This document shows, piece by piece, positions 15,765-64,000 of a stretch of 64,000 bases of DNA. How positions within the stretch are numbered: position 1 is the first letter of the stretch; the number at the start of each line of letters is the position of its first letter. Below the pieces are notes generated by a model. It was not told where the DNA came from and ran no database searches. It saw only the letters and a program-made list of their open reading frames with translations. The DNA comes from an uncultured bacterium (lineage in GTDB: Bacteria; Patescibacteriota; Minisyncoccia; Phycocordibacterales; CAIZLB01): contig CAIZVZ010000006.1 of assembly GCA_903936565.1 (NCBI GenBank), positions 29,436-93,435 on the forward strand, in the 5' to 3' direction. Position numbers and translations under genes: made by a program.

Positions 15765-15790
15765 GTTGATTTGATTAAATAATATTAAAC

Positions 15791-18070: not shown

Positions 18071-18090
18071 TTTTTATTATTTAAGATTAA

Positions 18091-18705: not shown

Positions 18706-18709
18706 ATTT

Positions 18710-19258: not shown

Positions 19259-19262
19259 ATTA

Positions 19263-19934: not shown

Positions 19935-20015
19935 AGGTTATTTAAATATAGTATATCATTAATTAAAATTAAATTGCACTCTTTTTTAAGAGTTTTCCAC
20001 ACCTGTCAAAATTCA

Positions 20016-47159: not shown

Positions 47160-47600
47160 TGTGTCCCTTAGGTGGGTATTTAGGCCGGAGCGCCAGATCC
47201 GTACGGAATTAAATCCCTACAAATTCCAAAGTCTAAATACGACGATCCAACTATAACCGAGATTGCCCAGCCGTGCACACTTGCTTTTGACGCCGTCAGC
47301 CAAGTTAACTCGATCATAGAATGACACAATTTGTCATTTGGACCGATCAAAAAAGAAGGGTTATGTGTGATCCGGCCAAGTGCCAGACACCTAACACATA
47401 TTGTCACCAGAGGAACAGGTGACAGACGCAACTAGTTCCAAAACTAGGGTAACTCGGTGCAAGTGCCACCGTAACAAATTAACCAGCGTTTAAGGTCGAC
47501 GAAGACCACACTTCTAGCCCGACTCACGACAAGGTGAGCGGGCTATCCTTTTGGCTTTTTTTCTTGTACTCACGTACACCACCCTACCACCCTACTTCTG
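47160..47600 (+). ncRNA. Unassigned candidate structured ncRNA (about 440 nt, GC about 50 percent) ending in a strong intrinsic terminator
   Basis: ORF-free GC-rich block between divergent ftsH and smpB. Hairpins include atgaca-caatt-tgtcat and tgtcacc-agaggaaca-ggtgaca. Terminal hairpin agcccgactcac-gacaag-gtgagcgggct followed by ttttggcttttttt (47550-47600). No RNase P, SRP or tmRNA consensus recognised. Confidence 0.3.
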
Positions 47601-47647
47601 CGCAATTCCATAATTGTAAAAAAAGATATATACTAAGAAAAATAAAG

Positions 47648-48103
47648 ATGACCATAAAGACCCTCGTAAAAAATCAAAAAGTTTTCTTTAACTATGAAAT
47701 AACGGATAAATATAACGCCGGTATTGAGCTTTTTGGGTACGAAGTAAAAGCAATTCAAAAAGGTCTCGGTAATATGGAAGGGTCGTATATCGTCATAAGA
47801 GGTGGGGAGGCGTTTTTAATAGGGCTAGATCTTCCACCATATCAGCAAAAAAACACTCCCACAGAATACGATTCAAAGAGAAATAGAAGGTTATTATTAA
47901 ACAAAAAAGAGCTCATAGAGTTGGCAGAAAAGGAGAAAGAGAAAGGCTTGACTATCGTGCCAATAGCGTTGTACAATAACGGTCGCAGAATCAAGCTAGA
48001 GCTTGGTATTGCAAAGGGAAAGAAGAAATTTGATAAGCGTCAGAATATCAAAAAAAGAGAGAGTGATAAGGAAATCAACCGCGCACTCAAAGGCGGAAGG
48101 TAA
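47648..48103 (+). CDS. smpB: SsrA-binding protein SmpB
   Basis: IAQNKKAFFNYEI-like N-terminus (KNQKVFFNYEITDKYNAGIELFGYEVKAIQ), LPPYQQ, C-terminal basic tail GKKKFDKRQ. Internal Met start chosen. Confidence 0.85.
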   Translation: MTIKTLVKNQKVFFNYEITDKYNAGIELFGYEVKAIQKGLGNMEGSYIVIRGGEAFLIGLDLPPYQQKNTPTEYDSKRNRRLLLNKKELIELAEKEKEKGLTIVPIALYNNGRRIKLELGIAKGKKKFDKRQNIKKRESDKEINRALKGGR

Positions 48104-48173: not shown

Positions 48174-48568
48174 GGGGATGACATGCTTTGACACATGACT
48201 GGATTTTTTATGTGCGTAACCGAGTGCCCGAGAATCTCGTTAAACTTCCGGAACCCTTAGATGCAAAAGCCCAAAAAGCAGTCGCTTCTCCATTCTTTGG
48301 AGTAAACGACTTTGCATTTGCAACAGCTAGAGCCTAGCTCGCTATTGCAACGTTCTTACCTACTCTTTTTGCAAGTAGGATAAGGGCGCAATAATTGCAA
48401 AATAGATTTACAGAAATCTTAGACTGTAAATTAAAACAAATAAGATCGACGACGTTGTGTTTTGATAATTTTATAGCACCGCCGTTTAAAAACAAAAAAA
48501 ATCATCTACGCTACGTAGACTCATAAAGAAACATCGTGTGCACGCGGGTTCAATTCCCGCCATCTCCA
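48174..48568 (+). ncRNA. ssrA: tmRNA (ssrA)
   Basis: 5-prime GGGGATG pairs with 3-prime CATCTCC, including a G3-U70 wobble pair. T-arm GCGGGTTCAATTCCCGC, discriminator A. Internal candidate tag frame ending at UAG 48335-48337 (...NDFAFATARA). Located immediately downstream of smpB. Confidence 0.8.
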
Positions 48569-48583
48569 CATCAATAAAAATAG

Positions 48584-48765: not shown

Positions 48766-48906
48766 ACGTAATTTACCTTGACACATAGGCCTGTCTGTAT
48801 TATTGTTTGCGTGAATAAAGTTCCCTGCCCCCCCCCGTTGTGTTTAGAATCGAGCCTGTGGACAAATCGCGGGCCTGCTCTAACCACAACCCCAGAATAT
48901 CAGACC

Positions 48907-49374
48907 ATGTACGTTGCATATAATCCAAAATCGTTAGTTCAACCCATAAGCGCCAAAACCGGAGTGGACGCCCTGGAAAGCATCGCTGCTTTCTTCAAAG
49001 AACTTCTCAGACTCCGTGCTGAGGGGAAGCATTCAGAAATCGAAGGTCACATCGACTTGGATAAACCCGAGTTTCGTGATGCCTGGACGAACCCCCACGG
49101 TAGCAAACTTCGACTCTTCACCCTTACACGAAATGTCGATCACGCAACTCATCTCTCCGGATGGGCATTCAGATGCTGGGCGCGACCGTATGCGAAGGTT
49201 ACGGTGGATGACCACTTCGAAACCATCGATTTGGGAGCCTTGCTGTTTGAAGTCCGTAGCGATGAATATCAAATTCTTCTACAGTGGGCCCAAAGACACT
49301 TCACGGATGACTTGTATCCATGGGAATGCAACCTTCACAGTAGAAAAAGCATCCTGTGGCTCGGAGAAGGCTAA
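48907..49374 (+). CDS. Hypothetical 155-aa protein in a GC-rich (about 52 percent) islet immediately 3-prime of ssrA and its duplicated end
   Basis: Start MYVAYNPKSL chosen (track start 48778); followed by a GC hairpin terminator. Confidence 0.4.
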   Translation: MYVAYNPKSLVQPISAKTGVDALESIAAFFKELLRLRAEGKHSEIEGHIDLDKPEFRDAWTNPHGSKLRLFTLTRNVDHATHLSGWAFRCWARPYAKVTVDDHFETIDLGALLFEVRSDEYQILLQWAQRHFTDDLYPWECNLHSRKSILWLGEG

Positions 49375-49407
49375 CAACTTCATTTCTTCATCACCCCGAA
49401 CCCGAGG

Positions 49408-49436
49408 CACCCCGCCCGCAAGGTCGGGGTGTTCTT
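49408..49436 (+). terminator. Intrinsic terminator (caccccg-cccgcaaggt-cggggtg, then ttctt)
   Basis: Seen directly; marks the right edge of the GC-rich islet. Confidence 0.5.
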
Positions 49437-49464
49437 ATAAGTAAATAATTTGGGATACCACAAA

Positions 49465-50135: not shown

Positions 50136-50840
50136 CTACCTCCCCCTCAACCACCCGTTCAAATCAAAAAACTTCTCCCCATCCAAAAGATCAAAAACCA
50201 ATCTCAGTGTATCATTCACAATCTTCGTCACCCCCTTGTCTTTAATAACCAAAGCAAACTTAGCCCTTGGATTAGCTAATAATAAAAAGTTTTCCGTAGA
50301 CATTATCTCCCCCGGAGCAATAAAACTATCATTAGAAAAAATCTTCAACCCCTGAGATCTTCCAATATGAGACTTGATCATATCCTTATTCAACTTATCA
50401 AAATGACCCAATGCCTTTTTATTTGAAATTCCCTTCATGACAATTCCCCTCCTTTTAAATACCCTATGTGCTTCTTTAATAAAAAGCGTGGGCAAGTTAT
50501 CAAACTCGCTTTTTGCAGCATCACTACCTTGAATAGATAATATCGTCGTTTGTTTAGGAAGATTCAAAAGCTGATTATATGCCTGCACAATTTCCTTATC
50601 CTTATAAACCCTATAATGGTTTTTATTATGATCATTTTTATAAACAGGTTGCCAGATTGACTTCCTCCCTTCAATATTTTTCTTAACCAAGCCAGAATCA
50701 GAAAGACGCCCCAGACGATATTGAATGGTAGTCCTCAGAACTCCAAGTCTCCTGGATATTTCTGAAGGATACATAGGCTCAGTACCTATAATTTTTAAAA
50801 TTTTACTATCCAAGCTATCTATTCCGATCATGATTAACAA
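50136..50840 (-). CDS. TrmB-like winged-helix transcriptional regulator (paralog A)
   Basis: N-terminal HTH LDSKILKIIGTEPMYPSEISRRLGVLRTTIQYRLGRLSDSGLV. Confidence 0.5.
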   Translation of the reverse strand: MLIMIGIDSLDSKILKIIGTEPMYPSEISRRLGVLRTTIQYRLGRLSDSGLVKKNIEGRKSIWQPVYKNDHNKNHYRVYKDKEIVQAYNQLLNLPKQTTILSIQGSDAAKSEFDNLPTLFIKEAHRVFKRRGIVMKGISNKKALGHFDKLNKDMIKSHIGRSQGLKIFSNDSFIAPGEIMSTENFLLLANPRAKFALVIKDKGVTKIVNDTLRLVFDLLDGEKFFDLNGWLRGR

Positions 50841-50956
50841 TGATACTTATTGACAAATATTTTGTCAATACAATCCATGATAAGCCAATAAATACAGTAC
50901 CATGATCATGTCTATTGATTTTCATACGATTATATACATCAAGATGATTTAATCTA

Positions 50957-52288
50957 ATGCATATGAATAACATAGCGATTACATACTTAGCTGCGTATTT
51001 GGTAATACTGGCCATTATTACTTGGCGGTCAGCAAAAAGAGAAACTCCCGCTGATTATATCAATAGCGGCAAGAACTTATCCGCAAACGATTCAACGTGG
51101 ACCACCTTCGCTTCTCTATTAACTGGCTACAATTTTGTAATAGGTGTTACATTTTCATTCTTGTATGGCTTTTGGTATTTAATGGTATTTGTCGGAGCCG
51201 GAATGGCATTTGTTGTTTTATATCTATTTTACAAGAAACACCTACTCCCTCTTCAAAGAGATCATGATCTATTTTCCATCGGAGATTATTTTGGTTTAAA
51301 GTATGGGTCGTTAAGCAAGAAACTAATTAATTTAATTTTATGCGGTGGACTTATATTATTTCTAATTCTTCAAATGTTTGTAAACACAACGCTTTTCTCA
51401 GCACTACTTCATATTGAAAAGCTGACAGCATTAATTATTACCACAGGCGTAGTCTGTATATACCTATGGTTTGGCGGGTTTAAAGCCTCAGTCAAAACAG
51501 ATATCTTTCAAGGTCTTTTAATGTTGCCGATAATTATGACAATTTTCGTTTTTCCTGTGCATTTTACATTAGGAAAAATTCCGCAGGCTTTTGACCCCTC
51601 ACAATTTTGGTTTGCCATAGGTTTAATGTTATTGCAGTTTTTGAGCCTGCTTGGACAAGCGGAAAGTTTTCAAAGAATATTTGCAAGTAGAGATGTGGAA
51701 TCTCTAAAGAAAGGTTTGGGAAGAGCATTCATTCTTCTTGCACTAGTCGCCGGATCAATCGCTTATCTTGGAATAAATTTTAAATTTTCAGGTCTAATAA
51801 GCGACCCTTCAGATTTATTTACCAAAGGAGTTCTGACTGCATTACCTTCATGGCTTGGACCATTATTAACCATTTCACTCATTGCATCTTTTATGGGAAC
51901 GATAGACTCAAGCGCTTTTGCATTCGGTGTTCTTGTCGCAAAAATGAGAGGAGCAAAAGAAAAATCAATCATAAAATCAACCAGGCTTTTTACTCTTCTC
52001 GGTATAATTGTCTCTGCAATTTCATCACTATATCTATTCTCATTCTTGTCCTCTGTGTTTGCACTAATATCATTAATATCAGTTGTGGGTGCGACGCTTG
52101 TAGTTTCAATTACACTCAGACCAAGCACATTTGAAATTAATACATTTCTAATTGTTGGTTCCGTCATTTTTATAGTTGGTTTGATTTTAAAATTCGTAAC
52201 TGACAATCCCTTAACGTCATTGATTCCAAGTGGAGCTGCCCTTTTAGCCATGTTGTTAGTTCGAGCATACGTGAGTTTTAAAAGATGA
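50957..52288 (+). CDS. Sodium:solute symporter family (SSS) transporter
   Basis: About 13 TM segments; N-terminal RSAKRETPADYINSGKNLS pattern typical of SSS. Confidence 0.6.
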   Translation: MHMNNIAITYLAAYLVILAIITWRSAKRETPADYINSGKNLSANDSTWTTFASLLTGYNFVIGVTFSFLYGFWYLMVFVGAGMAFVVLYLFYKKHLLPLQRDHDLFSIGDYFGLKYGSLSKKLINLILCGGLILFLILQMFVNTTLFSALLHIEKLTALIITTGVVCIYLWFGGFKASVKTDIFQGLLMLPIIMTIFVFPVHFTLGKIPQAFDPSQFWFAIGLMLLQFLSLLGQAESFQRIFASRDVESLKKGLGRAFILLALVAGSIAYLGINFKFSGLISDPSDLFTKGVLTALPSWLGPLLTISLIASFMGTIDSSAFAFGVLVAKMRGAKEKSIIKSTRLFTLLGIIVSAISSLYLFSFLSSVFALISLISVVGATLVVSITLRPSTFEINTFLIVGSVIFIVGLILKFVTDNPLTSLIPSGAALLAMLLVRAYVSFKR

Positions 52289-52614
52289 ATCTAGCTAGGC
52301 AGTCAGTCAAACCACGGCGCATAGTTATATTGACTTTTAGGCCTATTGATGTTATTGTATATTTAGCAAGTTCCCGATCAGGAGTTGTGTTTGGAATAAG
52401 GCCTGTGAATAAATCGTTGGCCCTATCTACAACACACACCCCTGAATTCATGAGAAATTACCAGTATGTCTTTCTAGGAATGTCGGCGCAAGCCTTCTGT
52501 ACCGCAATCTGGCTAGTGAAAGGAACCACACCAGTAAGTGTCGGCCAACAGCTATTCCTCGCAGCTTTGTTTGGCATCGTCGCCATCATCATTCGCAAAT
52601 GGAAACGGAACTAA
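52285..52614 (+). CDS. Small hypothetical membrane protein overlapping the SSS stop by 4 bp
   Basis: 109 aa, C-terminal TM helix LFLAALFGIVAIIIRKW; somewhat GC-richer than its flanks. Confidence 0.3.
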   Translation: MNLARQSVKPRRIVILTFRPIDVIVYLASSRSGVVFGIRPVNKSLALSTTHTPEFMRNYQYVFLGMSAQAFCTAIWLVKGTTPVSVGQQLFLAALFGIVAIIIRKWKRN

Positions 52615-52619
52615 CCCAA

Positions 52620-52666
52620 GACCCTCACGAGATCGACCTTCAACAGGCCTCGCGAGGGTCTTTCTC
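52620..52666. terminator. Bidirectional intrinsic terminator (gaccctcacgag ... ctcgcgagggtc)
   Basis: 12-bp inverted repeat with one G-U pair, T-run on the plus side; sits between convergent genes. Confidence 0.55.
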
Positions 52667-52683
52667 ATTTCTATATAATTTAA

Positions 52684-53796
52684 CTACTTCACCTCCACGA
52701 ACTTCCCATCCTTAATTGCCTTCAACATCAACTCCTTATACATTCCAACTCCCCTACTATCAACAGACAAACTTCCATTTGCTCCCTGATAATTATTCAA
52801 GCTTGCCAATTTATTTCTCACACAATCTTTATTTTCATATCCGCAAACGGCAATTGAATCTTTCAAGATGTTAAATGCATCGTACACGTTTGCAGATGTT
52901 AGATCTGCATCTACTCCATATTTATTTTTATATTTCAAAGCATAGTCTTGCCCTGCATCATTAGCTAATTTATCCTTAGGATAAGCATAGATAATTCCTT
53001 CAGCTAATTTATAATCCGTAATAGGCCCTTGTATAGCGTGAATACCAAATTTTGGTAGATTGTTAACACCCTGAACATTCATTTCTTTCAAAATATTATT
53101 GAAGTCTCCACCATGTGCAACAATCATTAAAGAATCAGGATTAGATTCCTTAATTTTCAAGACAGAAGTCTTAAAATCACCCAACCCCTTAACTACTGCC
53201 TCATCAGCTACAATAGTTCCTCCATTATCTTTGAAGTATTTTACAAAGTGTTTATAGTTTTCATCTTCAAACGCACCTTGCATGTGAATAATACCTACTC
53301 GTTTAAAATTCTTGGATTGCATATTTGAAGTAATGTCCTTCATTAAGTATTCAATTTCAGGAGAGAAAGTAAAATGATTTGGACCCATGTTTGCGATACG
53401 ATTAGATGGCAGACCAATAGAAATTGACATCACACCGTTATCCTCAAATAATGTCTCAGTTGAAATAGAAGCCTCATTACACATCGGCCCTATTATATAA
53501 TTTACCTTGTCCACCGTAATCAATTTTTGAACTGCACTAATTCCACTAGAACCGTTACATTTATCGTCCTCTTTAATTATCTTATAATTAGATCTTTCAC
53601 TTTGTGGCACACCCTCTAAAGCGAGGTTCAATCCATTTTGCATATAGTCACCAAATGAAGCGGCTGGACCAGAAAACGGACCCACCACGCCAATTTTTAT
53701 AACATTACTATCATTGTTGCTGTTATTATTAAAATAGACTAGCACGCCTACAATCACTATAATCGCCAAAACTATATATTTATATTGTATTTTCAT
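52684..53796 (-). CDS. Periplasmic-binding-protein type I solute-binding protein (LivJ/Peripla_BP_6-like), membrane-anchored, orphan
   Basis: TM anchor, then IKIGVVGPFSGPAASFGDYMQNGLNLAL. Confidence 0.65.
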   Translation of the reverse strand: MKIQYKYIVLAIIVIVGVLVYFNNNSNNDSNVIKIGVVGPFSGPAASFGDYMQNGLNLALEGVPQSERSNYKIIKEDDKCNGSSGISAVQKLITVDKVNYIIGPMCNEASISTETLFEDNGVMSISIGLPSNRIANMGPNHFTFSPEIEYLMKDITSNMQSKNFKRVGIIHMQGAFEDENYKHFVKYFKDNGGTIVADEAVVKGLGDFKTSVLKIKESNPDSLMIVAHGGDFNNILKEMNVQGVNNLPKFGIHAIQGPITDYKLAEGIIYAYPKDKLANDAGQDYALKYKNKYGVDADLTSANVYDAFNILKDSIAVCGYENKDCVRNKLASLNNYQGANGSLSVDSRGVGMYKELMLKAIKDGKFVEVK

Positions 53797-53926
53797 AACA
53801 ACAGAATAATATCAGGTTGTCCAGTGTTTGTCTCATGTTTATAACTAATAGTGACAAGATTATTAATACATGCTATATTATAAGGGTATTTTAATAGCTT
53901 AATGTAGTCCAAAATATGAACTTTAT

Positions 53927-54664
53927 ATGAAAATTGAAAACATACTCACCAAATACGGATTAACAGAACATGAGACACTTATATATATTTGTCTCCTTAA
54001 ACACGTTGAGGCAACCGCTTTTACGCTAGCAAAGGAAACTCATATCCCCCGGGCGACAACCTACAGAATTTTAGACTCGTTAAAAGAAATGAAAATGGTC
54101 TCTGTTTGGAAGAAGAATAACATTTCATACTTCAGTGCGGAAAGCCCCAATCGCCTACTCAAACTTTTGGATGAGAAAAAGGAGATGCTTAATTCCATAT
54201 TACCGGAGATGATGAATTTAAGGCAAATAGACAGCCTTACCCCCGCCACAAGAATATATGAAGGAAAGGAAGGCTTGAAAATTGTTTGGGACGATATATT
54301 AGATACCGCTGAGAAACAGGGGCTACGAGAAATTCATGCGATCTCAGGTCTCGATGTTTTGAAATATCTTCCAAGATACTTTCCGGAATGGTTAAAAAGA
54401 AGAGAAAAACTCGGTGTCTTCAGCTATGTGATCACAAAAGAGACCAATCCATCAACAGATTCCACCCTAGTAAAAAATCGCCTCAGAGAAACTAGAGTGA
54501 TGCCGATGGGGCTCATGGGTAATGGAACAATAGATATTTATGGAAACAAGGTTGCCTTCTTCTCCCTAAAGGACGGCCAAATATATTCTATAATATTGGA
54601 GTCCCCTTCTATTGCCGAGTTCCTTAGAAATTTCTTTATTTCAACTTGGGGCTTACTGAAATAA
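53927..54664 (+). CDS. TrmB-family transcriptional regulator (paralog B)
   Basis: ILTKYGLTEHETLIYICLLKHVEATAFTLAKETHIPRATTYRILDSLKEMKMV. Confidence 0.6.
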   Translation: MKIENILTKYGLTEHETLIYICLLKHVEATAFTLAKETHIPRATTYRILDSLKEMKMVSVWKKNNISYFSAESPNRLLKLLDEKKEMLNSILPEMMNLRQIDSLTPATRIYEGKEGLKIVWDDILDTAEKQGLREIHAISGLDVLKYLPRYFPEWLKRREKLGVFSYVITKETNPSTDSTLVKNRLRETRVMPMGLMGNGTIDIYGNKVAFFSLKDGQIYSIILESPSIAEFLRNFFISTWGLLK

Positions 54665-54724
54665 ATTTCAGAGAATAATATCCCAACAAAAAAACCACCC
54701 ATGTGGTTTTTTGTTTCCTATCTT

Positions 54725-55444
54725 CTACTTTTTAACCGCAATCATTACCGAATCCATCCATTGTCTATAGACCGTAGAAATACTTTCGTAATTATTTTGT
54801 ATTAACAGCCTAGATTGTTCAGATTCAGTAAATCTAACCTTTTCATCCTCAGCATAGTGCTTAATCCATTCCTCCTTGACGTCAGATCTTCCAATCTGAA
54901 CGAAAGCCTCAAATGTATTTATGGTATTCTCTATATATTCCTTCTGCAAAGGACCATCATCAACGGTACATTTGTCGCCATTCACAAAGATACCTCCTTT
55001 TTTTGTAACTCTAGCAATCTCTTTGAATAGTTCGTTTCTCTTCTCTATACTGAAGTTGTGTATTACATATCCTGAGAAGACCACATCGAAGTAATTGTCA
55101 TCAATGGATTTAAGATAATCCATTATCTCTGATTCTATAAAATCTATTTGCGATATATTCTGAAACCTTTTCTTTAAAGCCTCGAGCATTTTAGTTTCAT
55201 TATCAACTGCATAAATTTTATAATTATCCATTTTCACATCATCACAGGCTTGCAGTACGAAAGCTGTAGTTATTCCTGATCCAATACCAATTTCTAACAT
55301 TCGCACCTCTTCAGCTGATTTGATATTTTTAACTATAGTGTTAGCCACAGCTAGTTCTAAATCATCATAATACCAGAGTGCTTTCTTTAATAGGTCATAT
55401 TCCTCTCCACCTAACAGCCCTGAAAATCTTTGATCATTGTTCAT
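54725..55444 (-). CDS. Class I SAM-dependent methyltransferase
   Basis: Motif I LEIGIGSGITT, acidic post-I residue; 239 aa. Confidence 0.65.
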   Translation of the reverse strand: MNNDQRFSGLLGGEEYDLLKKALWYYDDLELAVANTIVKNIKSAEEVRMLEIGIGSGITTAFVLQACDDVKMDNYKIYAVDNETKMLEALKKRFQNISQIDFIESEIMDYLKSIDDNYFDVVFSGYVIHNFSIEKRNELFKEIARVTKKGGIFVNGDKCTVDDGPLQKEYIENTINTFEAFVQIGRSDVKEEWIKHYAEDEKVRFTESEQSRLLIQNNYESISTVYRQWMDSVMIAVKK

Positions 55445-55450
55445 GTTGTT

Positions 55451-56554
55451 TTATTTAATCTTATAAGGCTTATTGTCCTTTATTCCCATCAGTGCAAACT
55501 CTTTTGTAAATCCTCCCTTACCGTCTGATTTAAGATCTCCAGATTGACCCTTGTACTCAGTTATTGTGTGTATGTATTCCTGAATCTTTGTAGTATCTAA
55601 TCCGTTTGTGTTCTTAATCCCCTGAGCTATTAGCATGACTGAATCGTACGCTGTATCTGCACCACCCTCAATTTCTATTCCATACTCCTTTTTATATCTC
55701 TCTTCGAAATCTTTATTTGGAGTTAGGCCACTTAGGTATATCCAGCCATCACAAGACCCTTCACAAGTTGAGATAGTCTGTTTATCCATCGTCACCCCGT
55801 ATACGGGTAGTTTGATACCAATTTCCCTCATCTGTCTTCCGTATACAGAAGTTATGCTATACCCATCGGATGTTATGGCGATAGCATCAACTCCGGGAGT
55901 ATTCTTTAGTTTCAGTAAATCAGTTCTTACATCGGTTGAACTAACTAGTGGTTCATTTATGAAAATCGCATGACCGCCAAGTTGTTCTATTTTATTCTTG
56001 ATTGTAATAGTTTGATCTTTTACCCAAGGATCCTGTGCACCTAGGATGGCAATATTTTTATGACCATCCTTTATCATCATTTCTGCCAACTTCTCCGATA
56101 GTATATAGTCATGAGTATATGTATTGAAGATGTATGGGCTAGCTTCATTAAAAGCTGCGACACCCAGAGTTGGTGATATAACGACTGTATCCTTCACCAA
56201 GTCTTTTATGGCTAAACCATTTTTTGTCCAAGTTGGACCTATAATAAACTTTATACCTTCAGCATCCGTCAGTTTTCTGAAGGCGGTTACCGTTTTTGCT
56301 GGATCTCCTTGATCGTCTTCAACAACAGCTTCTAGTTTCTTTCCAAGAAGTCCTCCTTGATTGTTTATGTCCTTAATTGCTAAGTTCATACCGTTTACGG
56401 TAGCCTCACCCAAGGACGCCCCGTCACCGGACATTATCAAGACAGCTCCTATTTTAATGATCTTTTGATCATTACCGCTTTTCACATTTACGATACCAAT
56501 TATTAATAATATTGTTATAAGTATTGCTACTATGGTTGTTTTTTTGTTTTTCAT
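55451..56554 (-). CDS. Periplasmic-binding-protein type I solute-binding protein (second paralog), orphan
   Basis: TM anchor, then IKIGAVLIMSGDGASLGEATVNGMNLAIKDIN. Confidence 0.65.
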   Translation of the reverse strand: MKNKKTTIVAILITILLIIGIVNVKSGNDQKIIKIGAVLIMSGDGASLGEATVNGMNLAIKDINNQGGLLGKKLEAVVEDDQGDPAKTVTAFRKLTDAEGIKFIIGPTWTKNGLAIKDLVKDTVVISPTLGVAAFNEASPYIFNTYTHDYILSEKLAEMMIKDGHKNIAILGAQDPWVKDQTITIKNKIEQLGGHAIFINEPLVSSTDVRTDLLKLKNTPGVDAIAITSDGYSITSVYGRQMREIGIKLPVYGVTMDKQTISTCEGSCDGWIYLSGLTPNKDFEERYKKEYGIEIEGGADTAYDSVMLIAQGIKNTNGLDTTKIQEYIHTITEYKGQSGDLKSDGKGGFTKEFALMGIKDNKPYKIK

Positions 56555-56689
56555 AGTACTAATATCGTATATTTTTGACAGAGTTATTCAAAAGTGCTCT
56601 GAATTTCTTATCGAAAATATCCCATTTAGCCCTTATTTACAGTGCTATATATCTGTTGACAATACTCCGACAAAATGTATAATTAAACC

Positions 56690-57454
56690 ATGCAAATTTC
56701 AAAACTAAAAGAACTAGGATTTACAGACAAAGAAGTAGAGGTGTATGTTACCCTCTTGGAACAGGGGCGTCTAAACCCCTCCAGAATCGCCCTATCTAAC
56801 GGCATCAAAAGACCAACTGTATACGGAATTCTTAAGGAGCTTATAAAAAAGGGGGTAGTAGTAGAAGAAACCAGACAAGGTAAGCGGCTCTTCTCTGCCC
56901 TACCAGTCAAAAGTCTTGGCGATATAATTCTAAAAGAAGAAAGAGAGTTGCAATACAAGAAAACGTTGGTAAATCAAGCTATTGAGGAACTTGAATCTCT
57001 AAGTCTTAAAACAAAAAAGTCTATCCCCCGAATAACATATATATATGAAGAAAACATAGAGAACTTTTTATACAAACAAGCTTCAGCTTGGAACGAAAGT
57101 ATCTTGCAAAGAGATGGCTCATGGTGGGGATTCCAAGATCCAGAGGTTCTAAAAAAATATGGAGAATGGATTGATTGGTATTGGAAAGAAGAAAACACCC
57201 CCAAACAGGTGGTATTAAGACTTCTAACAAGTCAGTCGGAGTTTGAAAAAAGGATGGCAGCCAGAGGCTACAACAGAAGATTGATTAAGTTCTGGAATGG
57301 AGGACAAGATATTGATACTACGACTTGGGTAATAGGTGACTATGTAATCATTGTAGCCACAGGTCAGAAACCATATTATCTCGTCCAAATACACGATGAG
57401 GTGTTGGCAAAAAACATGAGAGAGATGTTTAAATATATATGGGAGACTCAATAG
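56690..57454 (+). CDS. TrmB-family transcriptional regulator (paralog C)
   Basis: LKELGFTDKEVEVYVTLLEQGRLNPSRIALSNGIKRPTVYGILKELIKKGVV. Confidence 0.6.
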   Translation: MQISKLKELGFTDKEVEVYVTLLEQGRLNPSRIALSNGIKRPTVYGILKELIKKGVVVEETRQGKRLFSALPVKSLGDIILKEERELQYKKTLVNQAIEELESLSLKTKKSIPRITYIYEENIENFLYKQASAWNESILQRDGSWWGFQDPEVLKKYGEWIDWYWKEENTPKQVVLRLLTSQSEFEKRMAARGYNRRLIKFWNGGQDIDTTTWVIGDYVIIVATGQKPYYLVQIHDEVLAKNMREMFKYIWETQ

Positions 57455-57601
57455 AGCTTTATTTATTGTCCACGCAGGAGATATCGAATGCCTAATTGCG
57501 ATGTATTGACAGGTACACAAAACGTGTTAATCTATCACCAGAGTTCCAAAAAACAACAAAACACAGGCACTCTTCTAATTCTGTAACCCCAAAACACGCA
57601 C

Positions 57602-58249
57602 ATGAGCAAAGAACTGACTGAATTCGAATTAATGGTTGCTACACAACTGAAGCAACTGGATAGACACCGAGACACAACCGAAGCTGCGGCAAGACAGACC
57701 ATTGTTGGCCAACAACGGTGGGGACAATGGGAATCGTTGGCGGAAATCTCTGCCGACACCATTCTTCAGTTGTCCGCCGAAGCCGGCGGGACCATGGTTG
57801 ATATGGTCTTGTGGGCTGACGAAAATGGCTACAAGGGAATCCTGGTGGACGTTGCCACCACCCTAGCTACTGGTGTCAGACCAATCGCCACCGCAAAATC
57901 AACCGAGATTGGTGAAGTCACAGGAAGTGTGCCTTTGGTAAAAACCCCAGAAGCAGCACTGCCTGAGTTCCAAATCAATGACGGCTACCTAGCAAAGGCA
58001 TTCCAGTTATCAACAACAGCCTCTAGTCTGGCGCAGCAAGGGCGGTTGTATGAGTCTCTCAACTGCTTCAGGACAAGTCTCACATACTTGTTCCTGGCCA
58101 AGGTACCAACCAACATCGAGAAGAGGAAGACGTGGGCCGTTGAAACCATCACGGAAGTGGACTTGATCCTTGCTGGGCTCATCGCCCCCTGTTTCCAGAG
58201 GGCACGCGCAGCGGGAAAACAGCTCATTCTCGTCACTGGGAAGTCCTGA
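57602..58249 (+). CDS. Hypothetical 215-aa protein in a GC-rich (about 52 percent) islet
   Basis: Compositional island 57480-58860. Its own hairpin terminator lies at 58305-58335 (ccccacg...cgtgggg). Confidence 0.4.
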   Translation: MSKELTEFELMVATQLKQLDRHRDTTEAAARQTIVGQQRWGQWESLAEISADTILQLSAEAGGTMVDMVLWADENGYKGILVDVATTLATGVRPIATAKSTEIGEVTGSVPLVKTPEAALPEFQINDGYLAKAFQLSTTASSLAQQGRLYESLNCFRTSLTYLFLAKVPTNIEKRKTWAVETITEVDLILAGLIAPCFQRARAAGKQLILVTGKS

Positions 58250-58538
58250 AAAATACCCACGTCAAGGCACCACTTCCAAACACCTTACCCCCGCATCCTA
58301 TGAGTCCCCCACGAACTCACGGACGTGGGGGATTTCATTTAACCTTAGAAATTTATCCACTTCGACCTAATAGTTATTGAAGTGGTAATTATATCAGACT
58401 TGACTTAAACAACATATAGTGTTATTATATGGAAAGCTAAGTTCCCATTGTGAGGTATGGTTTGATTTAGGATTGTCGTCGCAAATCAAGGCATTCGGCC
58501 TTCGATCGTGACCGCAAACTGAACCAAACCATTACCAA

Positions 58539-58784
58539 ATGAAAAACGCACGACACTTCGTATTCGAACTAAACTCTGCCGGCTCCTTTATGTTTGAGGG
58601 CATCGGTGACGATAAAGAAATCGACCGTGGGCAGCAGGACTACGTGAGAAGATTGGTCGAAGCCGCTCAGCTAGCGGTGGCAGCCTCGGGTAAACCCGTG
58701 GATCACTTCGAGAATGTCATCAGGCTCGCCGAAATTGGCCATATCATCAACTCGCTTTCACCACCAGCAGCAAAGACACCTTGA
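58539..58784 (+). CDS. Hypothetical 81-aa protein in the same GC-rich islet
   Basis: Followed by a hairpin terminator at 58815-58850 (ggacctt...aaggtcc, ttttcattt). Confidence 0.35.
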   Translation: MKNARHFVFELNSAGSFMFEGIGDDKEIDRGQQDYVRRLVEAAQLAVAASGKPVDHFENVIRLAEIGHIINSLSPPAAKTP

Positions 58785-58909
58785 CCCCCCCCGACCTCCG
58801 TGAACTGGACCTTCAACAGTCCTTCTCGCGAAGGTCCTTTTCATTTGAATAATTTATTCTATCATCCTCCAATCATTAGCAATAAACTCCATGATATAAT
58901 ATCCCTACT

Positions 58910-59470
58910 ATGCCCCATGTATATCACGCATCAAAAGCACAAAATTTAAAAACAATAGAAACTCGTAAAAGTACCCACGGAATACCTTGGGTCTATGCAA
59001 TGTCAAAGCCAGAGTATGCTTTAATTTTTATAGGGACCGAAGGAGACCTGGTTAATCAAGTTGGTTTCATCAACGGCCATCCTCGCATTGTAGAGAGATT
59101 TCCAAATTCCCTAGAGTACTCAGCAAGAAATAAATCGGGGTCAGTGTACACGTTAGATGGAACGGATTTCAAGAGTAGAGTAACATCATTCGAACTGGAG
59201 TTGGTGTGCGATCATAATTGCGAGGTATTAGAAGAAAATAAAATTGAAGATGTTCTTAAAAGTTTACTCGATCTTGAAAAGGAAGGTCTGATAGCAATAT
59301 ACAGATACCCAAACATGCCGAGCGATATGCCAAATGACAAAAGCGATTTGATAGAGCGAGCCGTAATGTGGTCAAAGCAATTTCCTGTTGAGGAAATACT
59401 GCGCGATGTCGAGAGATATCATCCAGATATATTGGAGGAAGTAAAAAGACAAATTGAAATTGAAGATTAA
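58910..59470 (+). CDS. Hypothetical protein (186 aa)
   Basis: ORF only; convergent with the NUDIX gene and overlapping it by 4 bp. Confidence 0.35.
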   Translation: MPHVYHASKAQNLKTIETRKSTHGIPWVYAMSKPEYALIFIGTEGDLVNQVGFINGHPRIVERFPNSLEYSARNKSGSVYTLDGTDFKSRVTSFELELVCDHNCEVLEENKIEDVLKSLLDLEKEGLIAIYRYPNMPSDMPNDKSDLIERAVMWSKQFPVEEILRDVERYHPDILEEVKRQIEIED

Positions 59471-59967
59471 GTAGTTAAAAAACTGATATCCCTAACCTTA
59501 GTATATTTTACCTGCATAGGTGTCGCGTACAAACTTATTTCACTTGTCGATTCCAAGAGGGACAGCGCTTCGCTAATACTTACCCACAACATCTCCTTTC
59601 CCTCTTTTATCTCATCCTGCATCAAATTTAAATTACCCTTTGTACCAATAACATTTGCCTTGTAACAAAAAGTTTCATTTATTAGTTTTTTATCTCTCAA
59701 ATATTCTTTAACAATTCCAACCTCGCTAATAATTTTAATATCGCAACCCGCTTCTTCTTTCACTTCACGAATTGCACCTTCCTCTAATGTCTCATCAGCT
59801 TCAACTCCCCCACCAGGTAATTCATAATAACCCCTAATCTTGGCATGAACTAGAGCTATTTTATTTTCATCATCAGTGACGATAACTCTTACTGCACGTC
59901 TGTGTTTATACGTCTCAATCTCATCGTCAGTTATGTTTTCATCGTTTAAGATTGTGAGTAGTTTCAT
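59467..59967 (-). CDS. NUDIX hydrolase
   Basis: Nudix box GGGVEADETLEEGAIREVKEEAG. Confidence 0.8.
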   Translation of the reverse strand: MKLLTILNDENITDDEIETYKHRRAVRVIVTDDENKIALVHAKIRGYYELPGGGVEADETLEEGAIREVKEEAGCDIKIISEVGIVKEYLRDKKLINETFCYKANVIGTKGNLNLMQDEIKEGKEMLWVSISEALSLLESTSEISLYATPMQVKYTKVRDISFLTT

Positions 59968-60068
59968 ATATTAATTGTATCATTATATTTTCTTATTAAG
60001 TACATTTTATCCAATGAATATCACATAAGATATCGAAGATTTAAGTGATATGATAGTATTAAAAAATA

Positions 60069-60356
60069 ATGCCCCACCCACTCTCCAGCAAAAAAATAAC
60101 AAGAAGTCACACCACATTAATCGATGGAGCAATTAATGTTGTTAGACATGCGGTAAAGATGCCCGAGGTCTCTAAAGTGAGTTTGGGAATTATTAAAAAA
60201 ATAAGCATCGGAAAACCTAGAATCAAATTCCTACCAATCACCGGCGGCGTCAAAGCAATCGTCCGAGGTAATGCTTACGTTCAGGAAATTTTTATATATA
60301 CAAGCGACGATAAAAAGACGGTTGCTGTCCTAACCAAACTTTTTGAAAATAAATAA
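60069..60356 (+). CDS. Hypothetical small protein (95 aa)
   Basis: ORF only. Confidence 0.3.
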   Translation: MPHPLSSKKITRSHTTLIDGAINVVRHAVKMPEVSKVSLGIIKKISIGKPRIKFLPITGGVKAIVRGNAYVQEIFIYTSDDKKTVAVLTKLFENK

Positions 60357-60439
60357 ATTTATAAATCAACTCCAATCTATCCCTTTTGTACACTTATTAT
60401 GCAACCCAGCAGCCATTATTTAATCTAATTCAAAAGCCT

Positions 60440-60960
60440 AAAGCTCTTGACAACTTAGTTGATTAGAGTAGTATTTTGTCATCCACGGCAAGTCGATAAG
60501 ACAACAGGCCGGATGAGTTCTTTTTTTACCAACAGCCATCATTTAGGCAAAAGTTAAGTAGAACTAGAACCGTGCCGACCAACCAACGCATGATGGATAC
60601 GGCTATCTAACACTAAGGTAAAACCAACGGAAGTGTAATCTCTCGAACAACCAAACGTGTTACATAGCCAAGATTTCCGGCCGCTAGGCCAAAACAACTT
60701 GGCGGGGAGTGATGATACCCCGACCCAAGCCCGGTACTGGTAACACTGGGTGAGAATGAGGTGAGTGGGCTTTCGGGCCCGAACCCGCCTGGGGTGGCAG
60801 ACCTGGTTAACGAGTTTTCAGGTTAGACTGGTAACACGATGCACAGTCATGCGCACCCGGGCGGGTTCAAACCTCACCCAACCGGCTTTGGAACATTTCC
60901 ATAGCCATCCCCGCTTCGGGCAAGGAAACGCCCTGGCGGTTTTTTGTTGCCTAAAATACT
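60440..60960 (+). ncRNA. Unassigned candidate structured RNA or long leader (about 520 nt, GC about 50 percent) upstream of infC
   Basis: ORF-free GC-rich block. Contains AAGCCCGG ... CUGGUAACACUGGG ... ACCCAACCGGCUUU (loosely reminiscent of the RNase P P4 region). Several GC hairpins with a UUCG-type loop; ends cgccctggcgg plus ttttttg. Confidence 0.25.
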
Positions 60961-61057
60961 CCAATAAGGCTAGCCTGAAAACCACCACCTCGCGATAATA
61001 GCACCAAAACCATAGCCAATCGCCAAATCAAATGCTATACTGCTTCCATACCAATAT

Positions 61058-61576
61058 ATGGCAACACAACAAATACACGTTAGAATCAATCACCAAATAC
61101 GCGCGGCAGAACTACGTATTCTAGGACCTGAGGGAGAAAATTTCGGAGTAATGACCTTTGAGGACGCTATGGCCAAGGCCCGCGAGCTTAATTGTGACCT
61201 TATTGAGATATCCCCTAGAGCCAATCCACCAGTTGCAAAAATCATGGATTATGGTAAATTTCAATACGACGAAAGTAAAAAACAGAAGCAGGCAAAAGCT
61301 AATGCAAAGAATTTTGAAGTTAAGAGTTTACAGGTAAAAATAGGCACTGGAGACCATGACTTAGCCCTAAAGGCTAAAAAGGCCTCAGAATGGCTACAAG
61401 AGGGGCATAGAATCAAGTTTGACCTATTCCTCCCAGGTAGAACCAAGTACCTAGACGAGAAGTTCCTCAAAGAGAGAATGGACCGTTTACTCAACCTTAT
61501 AAGCACTGACTACAAAATAGCAGATCCGGCTAAAAAAAGTCCAAAGGGTTTAACTATCATTTTGGAGAAGGCATAG
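61058..61576 (+). CDS. infC: Translation initiation factor IF-3
   Basis: INHQIRAAELRILGPEGENFGVMTFEDAMAKARELNCDLIEISP; followed by rpmI and rplT. Confidence 0.85.
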   Translation: MATQQIHVRINHQIRAAELRILGPEGENFGVMTFEDAMAKARELNCDLIEISPRANPPVAKIMDYGKFQYDESKKQKQAKANAKNFEVKSLQVKIGTGDHDLALKAKKASEWLQEGHRIKFDLFLPGRTKYLDEKFLKERMDRLLNLISTDYKIADPAKKSPKGLTIILEKA

Positions 61577-61724
61577 TCGGTACTTTACAAGCTTTTACCT
61601 CGCCTACCTTGTGACTGAGGGCTGTGGGCTCCTTACTCCACCTGTACATCAATCACGTTCGTCTTAAATTATTAGTTAGTTAACAAAGGTCAGATGCCTC
61701 GCGGTGTCGTGGCCTGCAAAAAAT

Positions 61725-61910
61725 ATGAAGACAAATAAGTCCTATGCAAAACGTCTTAAGGTTTCTAAGAATGGAGTGATCACTTCTAGAGCCAAGGGAC
61801 AAAACCACTTCAATTCAAAGAACAGTGGTAGAAAGGGAATCTCAAAAGGTCGTACCGTTCCGTTCGTTATGAGTACTCGTGATAGACGCCGTTTCTTGGC
61901 TCAATCATAG
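61725..61910 (+). CDS. rpmI: 50S ribosomal protein L35
   Basis: MKTNKSYAKRLKVSKNG; internal Met start (the track starts at 61704). Confidence 0.75.
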   Translation: MKTNKSYAKRLKVSKNGVITSRAKGQNHFNSKNSGRKGISKGRTVPFVMSTRDRRRFLAQS

Positions 61911-61974
61911 TCTCTAAACTTAATTTTATAAAATAATTAACCCAGTAGGTGATCCTGCTGGATCAAATAAATAT

Positions 61975-62358
61975 ATGGTACGTATCAAAAAAGGAGTTAC
62001 AGCTTTAAAAAGCAGAAGATATATATTAAAGGCCGCTAAAGGTTTCCGTGGACCAAGAAAGAGTAAAGAGAAGTTAGCAAATGAGCAATTAGTACACTCG
62101 TACGCTGCAGCATTTGCTCACAGAAGAGACAAGAAAGGAGACTTTAGAAGATTGTGGAATGTTAGAATCAACGCAGCACTACGTCCTCATGGAGTTTCTT
62201 ACAGTAAGTTTATCGGATTCCTTAAGAAGCAAGAGATTGAGCTAGACAGAAAGACACTTTCTGAAATGGCGCAAAATGCTCCAGTTTCATTTGAGAGAAT
62301 CGTTAAGCAAGTTATGGCAAAAGCTTCAGTTGAGACAAAGGTTGCACCAAAGGCATAA
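61975..62358 (+). CDS. rplT: 50S ribosomal protein L20
   Basis: MVRIKKGVTALKSRRYILKAAKGFRG...FRRLWNVRINAALR. Confidence 0.85.
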   Translation: MVRIKKGVTALKSRRYILKAAKGFRGPRKSKEKLANEQLVHSYAAAFAHRRDKKGDFRRLWNVRINAALRPHGVSYSKFIGFLKKQEIELDRKTLSEMAQNAPVSFERIVKQVMAKASVETKVAPKA

Positions 62359-62395
62359 GCCGAACAATCTGGGCCAACACAAAGCTAAACAAAAT

Positions 62396-62428
62396 CGCCC
62401 CAGTGAATTAAATCTCAGGGCGTTTTTG
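62396..62428. terminator. Bidirectional intrinsic terminator between rplT and the convergent solute-binding-protein gene
   Basis: cgccc...gggcg hairpin with A-run and T-run flanks. Confidence 0.5.
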
Positions 62429-62471
62429 TTTGTCTGTTTGAATGGTAAATGAAGCAAAGGGTGTCACGGAT

Positions 62472-63617
62472 CTATTTCAAATCAACCAGCTTGTTATCAA
62501 CCACTTCCCTCAAATAATAAACATCGTTACCAATTGGATCACCATTTCTATCGAAACTTAGATTACCTGTCACACTAGGACGCGACTGCATGGAATAAAG
62601 ATAATCCTTTATTTTACTTGAATTATTTCCAACCTTACCAATTGCTTCGAATATAATTTCGCCAGTATCATATCCAAGCGTTGCACCAAACGGATAAGTG
62701 GGAGGATTTCCAAACAACCCAACGAACTGAGCATTAAACACATCTAACGTCTTAGTATCTTTTGCAGCTCTAAAATCCACAATCTTCACGCCATTAACCC
62801 ACTTACCACTTTTTACAAAATCATCACCAGATATAAAGTATGTATAAATCTGACCTGTATATCCTATCTCCCTTAACGACTTCACCAACTTACTTCCTGA
62901 TGCTCCAGTCTGAACATTCAAATACAGAGCTTCAGGATTTACAGACTTTATCTTAGCAGAAATTGTATAAGCATCATCACTATCCAGTAATATTGAGTCA
63001 TTATAAATCAGATTAGCACCCAATTCCTTAATCTTATTTTCAAAAACAGGAATGATAGTTTGGGACGCTAATGTTTTCTCAGAAACGATACCGACGTTCT
63101 TAAATTCATCCTTAGTTATAGTTTCAGCAATTATTTTTCCTGAGTTTTCATCGGATGGCGGAATTCTAAAGACAAAATCTCCCGCCTTCGTTACACCTGG
63201 CGATGTTGAAAAGGAAGATATAAGTAAGACCTTATTTTGTTCAGCGATTGGTGCTATAGCCATAGTTTCATTTGAACACTGACCACCAAAAATTACCTTA
63301 ACCTTATCTACATTAATTAATTTTTGGGCTGCCTTTACCGCTTCCTTACTATCACACTTTCCATCCTCGAATATCATTTGAATTTGATCATTTTTTATAA
63401 CACCTCGACTAATCGAATCCTTAAGTGCCAGTTCGATCCCCTGCTTTACTGGAACACCATAGGGTGATGCCTCTCCGGTTAGAGGTCCGATAAAGCCCAC
63501 CTTAATAACCTCACTGTTATCTCTGTTATATAAAGCAAGATATATTACAACAATCACAACACACACCACCGCGACAATCTTGATAATTATTCTGTTTATT
63601 TTGTTTTCATTTTTCAT
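62472..63617 (-). CDS. Periplasmic-binding-protein type I solute-binding protein (third paralog), orphan
   Basis: TM anchor, then IKVGFIGPLTGEASPYGVPVKQGIELAL. Confidence 0.65.
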   Translation of the reverse strand: MKNENKINRIIIKIVAVVCVVIVVIYLALYNRDNSEVIKVGFIGPLTGEASPYGVPVKQGIELALKDSISRGVIKNDQIQMIFEDGKCDSKEAVKAAQKLINVDKVKVIFGGQCSNETMAIAPIAEQNKVLLISSFSTSPGVTKAGDFVFRIPPSDENSGKIIAETITKDEFKNVGIVSEKTLASQTIIPVFENKIKELGANLIYNDSILLDSDDAYTISAKIKSVNPEALYLNVQTGASGSKLVKSLREIGYTGQIYTYFISGDDFVKSGKWVNGVKIVDFRAAKDTKTLDVFNAQFVGLFGNPPTYPFGATLGYDTGEIIFEAIGKVGNNSSKIKDYLYSMQSRPSVTGNLSFDRNGDPIGNDVYYLREVVDNKLVDLK

Positions 63618-63739
63618 ATTTTTAATATCTAATTTGACACACTCATTTTTAATGTCGTAATTTTAATATATTTGAGGATATTGTCAAATATTGTTGAACA
63701 GATGTTGACAACTATTCAACAACAGAATATACTTACATC

Positions 63740-64000
63740 ATGACGCTATCAACTAATCTTAAAAAGCTGGGCCTTAACAATAAGGAGATAGAGATCTATC
63801 TGACCTTAATCAAGAAGGGTTCTACATCCCCCACCGACCTTGCCAAGATAACTAAAATTAATAGAGCCACTATTTATAGCTCAGCCAAGAACCTTCAAAA
63901 TAAAGGTTTGATAATTGAGGATATCTCTGGCACCAAGACGGTCCTTACCCCTGCCCCAGCAACGCAGCTGGAGCAAATAATTAAACGTGGAGAAAAGGAG
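63740..64000 (+). CDS. TrmB-family transcriptional regulator (paralog D), N-terminal part; continues beyond the window end
   Basis: LKKLGLNNKEIEIYLTLIKKGSTSPTDLAKITKINRATIYSSAKNLQNKGLI. Confidence 0.5.
   Translation, partial: MTLSTNLKKLGLNNKEIEIYLTLIKKGSTSPTDLAKITKINRATIYSSAKNLQNKGLIIEDISGTKTVLTPAPATQLEQIIKRGEKE

Follow-up and report, generated by a model that had tools for sequence, protein, structure and literature searches.

In Thermococcus litoralis and Pyrococcus furiosus the trehalose/maltose operon, which encodes an ATP-binding cassette (ABC) transporter that depends on a solute-binding protein (SBP), is repressed by TrmB through a palindrome at the malE promoter (PMC4158304). The same review of the TrmB family describes the TrmBL2-type architecture, which has no sugar-binding part and to which the 264-aa TrmBL2 (TK0471/PF0496) belongs (PMC4158304). 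Among LivJ-type SBPs, the binding proteins LivJ and LivK work with LivHMGF in the hydrophobic amino acid uptake transporter (HAAT) family (TC 3.A.1.4), and BraC3 of Rhizobium leguminosarum is an orphan encoded apart from its transporter that docks on the distant, LivHMGF-type core Bra membrane complex (PMC2978685). Here we compare with these systems a 64 kb stretch of contig CAIZVZ010000006.1, referred to below as the window. The last 14 kb of the window, which is the region studied, carries three LivJ-type SBP genes (SBP1, SBP2 and SBP3) and, divergent from each, a gene for a TrmB-family regulator (R1, R2 and R3). Our best reading is that these are three copies of an old two-gene cassette that consists of a LivJ-type SBP and a dedicated TrmBL2-like regulator.

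The explanation that we favour, with a probability of roughly 60%, is that the SBPs belong, as scattered binding subunits, to a single importer of the LivHMGF type whose genes lie elsewhere, and that each SBP gene has a private TrmBL2-like switch. A regulator dimer would bind a palindrome in the control region shared by the two genes. In the bacterial copies this palindrome would cover the -35 box of the regulator gene itself and stand immediately upstream of the SBP promoter. The regulator would thereby control its own gene and switch the neighbouring SBP gene. The SBPs would catch different small solutes outside the membrane, which in the case of SBP3 are probably amino acids, and would pass them to one shared ABC translocator of the HAAT family elsewhere in the genome. 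This explanation starts from direct observations on gene identities, pairing, wide conservation, clade linkage to livHMGF in relatives, regulator fold and conserved palindromes, and to these it adds, by inference, regulator binding and its sign, an effector, the ligands and the presence of the translocator in this genome.

The binding proteins and their regulators

The first-pass annotation, made from the sequence alone, had recognised three LivJ-like SBPs, and this was borne out as all three match PF13458 (137-164 bits; E values in Table 1). At the N-terminus of each, inside residues 1-33 (1-26 in SBP1), there is one hydrophobic segment (Kyte-Doolittle 2.2-3.2) that leads into an Asn/Ser/Asp-rich linker, and no lipobox was found in the three sequences. 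With this helix the SBPs have the export signal or tether that places a HAAT-family binding protein outside the membrane. Of the membrane anchor that had been proposed, the helix stands; it can be read either as a stable anchor or as a cleaved signal peptide. As a putative tether it would set these SBPs apart from LivJ/LivK-type systems, in which the binder is a free periplasmic protein or a lipoprotein, and their identity to solved LivJ-type proteins is no more than 20-24%. An AlphaFold2 (AF2) model of SBP2 (mean predicted local distance difference test, pLDDT, 86; helix at residues 3-30) had LivJ/LivK-type SBPs as its best Foldseek matches (TM-score 0.77-0.80, 18-24% identity), so that Pfam family and fold are those of LivJ and LivK. 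The model also superposes on a urea binder and on aromatic-acid binders, and the structural modelling that had been suggested for predicting the ligand therefore did not single one out. The SBPs scored 69-99 bits against the NCBIfam model of the high-affinity branched-chain SBP (NF011933, cut-off 477) and 25-64 bits against the UrtA model (TIGR03407, cut-off 493), and NCBIfam gave only matches far under threshold for all proteins of the region.

SBP3 was aligned with E. coli LivJ (1z15) at the N-lobe positions Y18, C78-S79 and T102, and Tyr, Cys-Ser and Thr are kept opposite them. In LivJ, Y18, S79, T102 and other residues hold the alpha-carboxyl and alpha-amino groups of the amino-acid ligand. 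Because the aligned residues are retained, an amino acid is a plausible ligand for SBP3, the only one of the three in which this is so.

The first-pass annotation had placed each SBP head-to-head with a TrmB-family regulator, and a hidden Markov model (HMM) search upheld this, since R1, R2 and R3 all pass the Pfam gathering score for TrmB (PF01978, 25.6 bits). The gaps between the divergent genes are 130 bp for SBP1/R1, 135 bp for SBP2/R2 and 122 bp for SBP3/R3. R3 is cut by the end of the window and its full gene on the source contig encodes 256 aa (L001 9108-9878). A model of R2 built from 31 homologs (pLDDT 90.5) has a winged helix at residues 1-70, a 35-residue helix at 73-107 and a phospholipase D (PLD)-like alpha/beta domain at 114-253, and its top Foldseek match, over the full length, is TrmBL2 (E 1.5e-12). 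The overall TrmB fold, that is, winged helix-turn-helix (wHTH), long dimerisation helix and PLD-like alpha/beta domain, is thus present. The effector-binding domain PF11495 had no match in the regulators and there is no space for a C-terminal sugar-binding subdomain. We therefore model R1-R3 as TrmBL2-type proteins made of winged helix, coiled coil and PLD-like domain. Against the TrmBL2 equivalog model (NF041141, cut-off 530 bits) R3 scored 22.4 bits, and R1 and R2 gave no match. The recognition helix of the regulator family carries an invariant Arg-x-Thr-x-Tyr, which by the register of the Pfam alignment is probably the counterpart of the DNA-contacting Tyr50 of TrmB.

A separate feature of the PLD-like domain is a near-invariant Trp/Tyr-rich motif (R2 134-165: W134, W146-G-F-Q-D150, Y157, W160, D162-W-Y-W165) with the consensus WWGFQD...WxDWYW in the regulator alignment. 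It is a candidate effector pocket or oligomer interface, and we know of no counterpart in TrmB or TrmBL2.

When the locus is set beside the TrmB system, it shares a PF01978 regulator encoded with an ABC binding-protein gene, the order of DNA-binding domain, coiled coil and PLD-like domain, and a palindrome associated with the SBP promoter, which in the cassettes is predicted only and in the TrmB system is the site of action (PMC4158304). It differs in that the regulators have about 250 aa and lack PF11495 and the C-terminal sugar-binding subdomain, the putative target is a type I LivJ-like SBP and not MalE-like, and the cassette is divergent, usually apart from permease and ATPase genes, and multiplied in bacteria as well as archaea. 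TrmBL2 is the closest solved full-length structure, is similar in length and likewise lacks the sugar-binding part (PMC4158304). TrmBL2, however, is one abundant archaeal chromatin protein and global repressor that coats DNA, and its NCBIfam model gives only 22 bits on R3, whereas a genome with cassettes has several divergent regulator paralogs, each next to its specific target and a positioned palindrome. Unlike LivJ and LivK with their LivHMGF, many SBPs are found per translocator in relatives, and SBP genes are scattered with private regulators. BraC3 is likewise a LivJ-type SBP encoded away from its transporter, but it is a single orphan in a large genome and no dedicated divergent TrmB-type regulator has been described for it. 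The cassette is thus the TrmB paradigm in a new form, with a truncated TrmBL2-like regulator, another SBP class, divergent genes apart from the transporter genes, and amplification in bacteria of the Candidate Phyla Radiation (CPR) and in DPANN archaea. No paper describing a cassette of such a regulator and a LivJ-type binder was found in a literature search of incomplete coverage.

Relatives and the link to a LivHMGF-type importer

Relatives of the cassette were sought by a locus scan with an 11-sequence alignment of the SBP2 clade, one genome per species being kept; a 17-sequence alignment was too diverse. The scan gave 40 related loci from Patescibacteria (Parcubacteria, Saccharibacteria, Magasanikbacteria, Paceibacterota and Buchananbacteria), from DPANN archaea (Woesearchaeota and Nanoarchaeota) and from some metagenome-assembled genomes (MAGs) of Bdellovibrionota/Oligoflexia. 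Contigs from the protein database showed the identical pattern, with the archaeal markers ABCE1, deoxyhypusine synthase, Nre and ELP3 beside the cassette. Open reading frames (ORFs) for SBPs and TrmB-like proteins were counted in the non-redundant loci with home-built HMMs, a pair being divergent and within 400 bp. There were 104 SBP and 57 TrmB-like ORFs; 48 of the SBPs had such a divergent regulator, and 48 of the 57 regulators were so paired, which is far above chance. Pairs were present in 15 of 18 DPANN loci, 8 of 13 CPR loci and 1 of 6 Bdellovibrionota-type loci, and often there were several per locus; within 21 kb some of them (L031, L008, L019, L020 and L036) contained 6-10 SBPs together with as many as 8 regulators. 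The view that the repeated unit represents an expanded module family therefore held, and the unit is not peculiar to this genome.

Mutual identities in the window are 23-29% among the SBPs and 27-35% among the regulators, and by this measure both sets of paralogs are old. A neighbour-joining tree, which is indicative only, has several paralog clades that contain both archaeal and CPR sequences. Distances among the regulators correlate with those among the SBPs (Mantel r 0.53, reached in 0 of 2000 permutations). Partner reshuffling has also occurred, since the nearest neighbours of regulator and SBP are congruent in only 11 of 47 cases. Paralog clades are common to loci L003, L005, L007, L019, L023-L032, L036 and L041 on the one side and L008-L018, L020 and L027 on the other, and in the tree Magasanikbacteria (L018) and Buchananbacteria (L027) nest within a mainly archaeal SBP2 subclade. 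This distribution points to inter-domain transfers of cassette genes between CPR and DPANN. The SBP2-clade genes (42-45% identity) in MAGs of Bdellovibrionota/Oligoflexia (L021, L022, L024, L038 and L047) mostly form tandems and have no TrmB-like gene beside them; either these predatory bacteria took up the binders alone or the contigs are mis-binned.

What ties the SBPs to an importer is the company that they keep in relatives. In L019, a locus of Woesearchaeota, the order is R-SBP-livH-livM-R-SBP-ATPase-SBP-SBP-R-SBP-ATPase-R-SBP, so that a single livH, a single livM and two genes for ABC ATPases stand among four R-SBP cassettes and two extra SBPs, and L036 and L040 have a similar arrangement. 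In L010, from a Parcubacteria MAG, the order is livH-livM-SBPx4-?-SBPx2-?-livG-livF; the second SBP of this operon is a relative of SBP2 (53% identity) and the fourth is a full-length relative of SBP1 (L010 12135-13268, 42% identity). Pfam BPD_transp_2 and ABC_tran were confirmed for ten permease and ATPase proteins of these loci, and orthologous clades, like LivJ and LivK, share operons with a pair of PF02653 permeases and a pair of ATPases. LivM-type permeases of this sort are very numerous in CPR and DPANN: a profile of them had more than 7660 near-equal matches, with Pacearchaeota, Woesearchaeota, Portnoybacteria and Patescibacteria among the named sources, and of the 120 matches listed none could be traced to the organism of the window. 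Because the same SBP clades are interleaved or co-operonic with livHMGF in relatives, gene order indicates that this is a genuine HAAT-type family of ABC binding proteins with many binders per translocator, and the SBPs of the window look like scattered members of it. The first-pass annotation had offered three roles for the SBPs. Feeding a distant transporter is the one that gained support, from these same clades in L010, L019, L036 and L040, and nothing was found that supports a sensor or a ligand tether. Its term nutrient-sensing was loose, as the cytoplasmic regulators are linked to the extracellular binders through transcription only. Since the same two-gene unit sits with an ordinary ABC importer in relatives, it most likely serves to control nutrient uptake in a modular way, and a novel type of sensor is the less likely reading.

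In the window the control regions contain predicted sites that could serve such a control. The 20-bp element TGTTGACA-N6-CRACAA contains the palindrome TGTTGA-N7-TCAACA and spans the -35 box and spacer. In 660 kb there are exactly 7 copies, of which 6 lie 17-18 bp upstream of a regulator start. The seventh (L015) is 47 nt inside a called regulator ORF, and we take the start of that ORF to be mis-called. By itself the octamer TGTCAACA shows no enrichment, and the specificity lies only in the full element. Of 41 R-SBP intergenic regions, 10 contain a looser palindrome, TGTYG-N7-11-CRACA, whereas 0.04 would be expected from shuffles; 8 of the 10 sit 15-18 nt from the regulator start, and 2 of the 10 are in archaeal loci. 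R2 and R3 have common operator half-sites, and in the R3/SBP3 region three half-sites combine into overlapping palindromes, which stop 4 nt short of the -35 box of SBP3. The archaeal intergenic regions are laid out as a TATA-like box, about 10 nt, a paralog-specific palindrome, a few nt and a second TATA-like box; in the archaeal SBP2 clade an example of the palindrome is CCTCCA-N5-7-TGGAGG. Such a layout agrees with a dimeric factor that occupies the promoter of its own gene and lies beside, or on, that of the SBP gene. As the palindromes lie over the regulator's own promoter and beside or on that of the SBP, autorepression is suggested, together with repression or activation of the SBP gene. 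The -10 boxes of R2 and R3 end 6 nt before the ATG, which suggests that the two mRNAs are leaderless.

Gene regulation and nutrient uptake are poorly known in CPR and DPANN, which rely on other cells for most building blocks. If the favoured explanation is true, one multiplied cassette and one LivHMGF pump would be a simple model for widening and tuning import across two domains. The bacterial and archaeal versions, with operators over a sigma-70 -35 box and between TATA boxes, respectively, would also form a natural system for asking how one transcription-factor family rewires between two transcription machineries.

Weighing the explanations

Several results weigh against the explanation that we favour. 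The absence of ABC permease and ATPase genes beside the SBPs, which the first-pass annotation had reported, was confirmed: neither an ABC ATPase signature nor a LivH/LivM-type permease (BPD_transp_2) was found in the 64 kb and the 10 kb beyond either end, and for these 84 kb of the source genome the worry that the context had been truncated is answered as well. SBP1 and SBP2 lack the LivJ ligand-contact residues at the aligned positions, where members of the SBP2 clade share invariant motifs of their own. The regulators lack the sugar-binding subdomain and their closest structure, TrmBL2, is a general chromatin protein, so that a switch responsive to an effector cannot be taken for granted. 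In a sample drawn from the regulator side, three R2-like homologs had no SBP gene directly beside them, although their loci contain four other TrmB-SBP pairs. The R1/SBP1 region has no convincing palindrome, its best inverted repeats being AT-rich and unremarkable, and the promoter scan did not recognise an SBP2 promoter. The promoters and operators in general are consensus matches only.

The alternative that survives best, which is nevertheless unlikely, is that the SBPs work without an ABC translocator as tethered surface receptors that hold host metabolites, mediate host contact or signal via a partner, and on this account, with the same low likelihood, the neighbouring regulator merely sets the SBP level. 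It agrees with the lack of transporter genes within the 84 kb, with the cassettes of most relatives (a permease lies within 10 kb in only 6 of 42 related loci) and with the SBP2 clade having motifs of its own where LivJ has contact residues. By the titles of NCBI records the family is concentrated in Patescibacteria, DPANN and Bdellovibrionota, groups with a host-attached lifestyle, and SBPs are known to supply signalling proteins as well as transporters (PMC8050422). The same clades, relatives of SBP1 and SBP2 included, are nevertheless operon partners of livHMGF; no kinase, chemoreceptor or cyclase was seen beside any cassette in the loci inspected; and it is well established that the products of orphan SBP genes can work with a translocator encoded far away. 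A stronger version, in which this organism and many CPR and DPANN members with permease-free cassettes lack LivHMGF altogether, the SBPs are switchable surface receptors for host molecules or for signalling, and the TrmBL2-like regulators act on both sigma-70 and TATA promoters, is in our estimate a little less probable again.

A further alternative concerns the regulators, which might be nucleoid or global repressors of the TrmBL2 type or general local factors, so that adjacency would not mean one-to-one control. The top structural match to TrmBL2, which binds coding and intergenic DNA broadly (PMC4158304), and the missing effector subdomain would suit this, and with half-sites common to R2 and R3 cross-talk is possible. 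The family is also very large: a search of 1.84 billion representatives with the regulator profile gave 7318 proteins at E<=1e-10, of which 208 reach E<=1e-30. The three R2-like homologs mentioned above adjoin unrelated genes, and with this regulator-side sampling the idea that regulators of the R2-like subfamily always adjoin SBP genes was rejected. As the regulator-side homologs are not all SBP-adjacent, the R1-R3 family is a general family of local regulators that is often, not always, tied to SBPs. Against a lack of specific control stand the 48 of 57 regulators that are head-to-head with an SBP in SBP-selected loci, the palindromes at a fixed distance from the regulator start, which differ among archaeal paralogs, and the presence in one genome of several paralogs of 27-35% identity, which suits specific factors better than a single abundant chromatin protein. 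We regard this alternative as unlikely, and private switches remain the preferred reading of R1-R3.

It is highly improbable that the SBPs serve a secondary transporter such as the nearby sodium:solute symporter (SSS) family protein, in the manner of the TRAP and TTT (tripartite) systems: the SSS gene is 400 bp from SBP1 and has its own winged-helix neighbour, but cassettes are accompanied by an SSS gene in none of the related loci inspected, the one in the window is convergent with SBP1 with a terminator-like hairpin (52645-52661) between them, known SBP-dependent secondary transporters use DctP or TctC folds, and to our knowledge none has the type I LivJ-like fold.

Neighbouring genes, host and other features of the window

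Table 1. Positions of genes and predicted sites in the last 14 kb of the window.
Feature	Position	Strand	Evidence or remark
R0, winged-helix protein divergent from SSS gene	50136..50840	-	HTH_20 30.8 bits, above threshold, best family
SSS transporter, divergent member of the family, about 12 transmembrane segments	50957..52288	+	PF00474 34 bits (cut-off 22.8), weak; 12 hydrophobic segments
SBP1, LivJ-type binding protein	52684..53796	-	PF13458 (Peripla_BP_6) E 3e-40
R1 promoter-like site	53851-53879	+	consensus match
R1, TrmB-family regulator	53927..54664	+	PF01978 48.9 bits; family HMM E 8e-73
Hairpin bearing A and T tracts where the R1 and methyltransferase genes converge	54672..54729	.	terminator-like site 54689-54712; inverted repeat I2
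S-adenosylmethionine (SAM)-dependent methyltransferase	54725..55444	-	Methyltransf_11 E 1.5e-17; 6 nt downstream of SBP2
SBP2, LivJ-type binding protein, in the best-conserved clade common to CPR and DPANN	55451..56554	-	PF13458 E 1.4e-47
Conserved element TGTTGACA-N6-CGACAA over R2 -35 box and spacer	56654-56673	+	20-bp element
R2 promoter, sigma-70-type TTGACA-16-TATAAT	56656-56683	+	12/12 match
R2, TrmB-family regulator, TrmBL2-like architecture	56690..57454	+	PF01978 58.7 bits
SBP3, most LivJ-like of the three	62472..63617	-	PF13458 E 1.6e-39
SBP3 promoter-like site TTGACA-16-TAAAAT	63660..63687	-	11/12 match; begins 4 nt from end of palindrome cluster
R3/SBP3 palindrome cluster TTGTTGAA-N16-TTCAACAA	63691..63733	+	overlaps R3 promoter
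Palindrome TGTTGA-N7-TCAACA in the cluster	63703-63722	+	overlaps R3 promoter
R3 promoter TTGACA-17-TATACT	63705-63733	+	11/12 match
R3, TrmB-family regulator, cut by window end	63740..64000	+	PF01978 51.6 bits

The 14 kb region begins with R0 and the SSS transporter, followed by SBP1/R1, the methyltransferase, SBP2/R2, unrelated genes (two unknowns, a NUDIX gene, a DUF2103 gene, infC and rplT) and SBP3/R3. R0 had been counted as a fourth TrmB-like regulator; the three others pass the PF01978 score, and R0, at 23.6 bits, stays below it and has HTH_20 as its best family. In an hhalign comparison with the regulator profile only the wHTH of R0 aligned (probability 58%, columns 22-109). With a sub-threshold score and a wHTH-only alignment, R0 as a fourth TrmB-family member was rejected on present evidence. 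A promoter-like site at 50868-50840 ends exactly at the annotated TTG start of R0, and because it runs up to that codon the true start is probably the ATG at 50831 and the R0 mRNA nearly leaderless. The SSS transporter that had been noted beside R0 was verified in that it passes the PF00474 threshold, weakly; against TIGR00813 it scored 42 bits, far under the cut-off of 184. An ORF of 109 aa (52285-52614) overlaps the SSS stop codon by 4 nt (ATGA), is hydrophobic in its C-terminal half and has no family match; it could be a small membrane subunit co-translated with the symporter, or no gene.

The hairpin between R1 and the methyltransferase gene is a likely two-way terminator. The methyltransferase gene probably shares a transcript with SBP2. 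A UbiE/Methyltransf_11-type homolog is found in L008 (11075-11866; phmmer E 9e-38) directly 3' of the SBP2 ortholog, and another in L051 (8544-9308, 33% identity) is divergent from an R2-like regulator, with a 134-aa ORF intervening. The methyltransferase next to SBP2 may be a further member of the R2 regulon. The cassettes in the window are not bordered by long repeats, either direct or inverted, and a recent duplication or a mobile element as their source was rejected on this ground, with which the 23-29% identity among the SBPs agrees.

The host of the window is likely a CPR bacterium, because the closest relatives of its SBP2 are in Patescibacteria MAGs. The window has a GC content of about 37% and carries the bacterial markers initiation factor 3 (IF-3), L20, SmpB with tmRNA, and FtsH, and also a copper ATPase. 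Directly after smpB (47534-48103) comes the tmRNA gene (48174-48571; Rfam 118 bits), which was the sole match in an Rfam scan of 47-64 kb, where no tRNA was found either; the ORFs beside it (48778-49444) have no family match and may be spurious. Upstream of infC there are 700 bp (60357-61057) without a called gene, Rfam match or tRNA. The infC gene itself (61058-61576) is called as 141 or 172 aa in public assemblies (L001 12042-12467 and L002 12042-12560), which makes its start codon uncertain; unusual start codons are frequent in IF-3 genes.

Farther from the cassettes, the window contains a complete type IV pilus cluster (8331-21137; pilins, prepilin peptidase, PilC, PilT-like, PilB and PilM) with an adjoining gene for a 1297-aa PKD-domain protein (22321-26214). 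Surface equipment of this pilus/PKD type is typical of CPR cells that attach to hosts. The GC content falls to 30.5% at 26001-28000, around an Acyl_transf_3 gene (26373-27530), and a Bro-N domain protein is encoded at 34513-35358; this low-GC stretch and the Bro-N gene may be horizontally acquired or phage-related islands.

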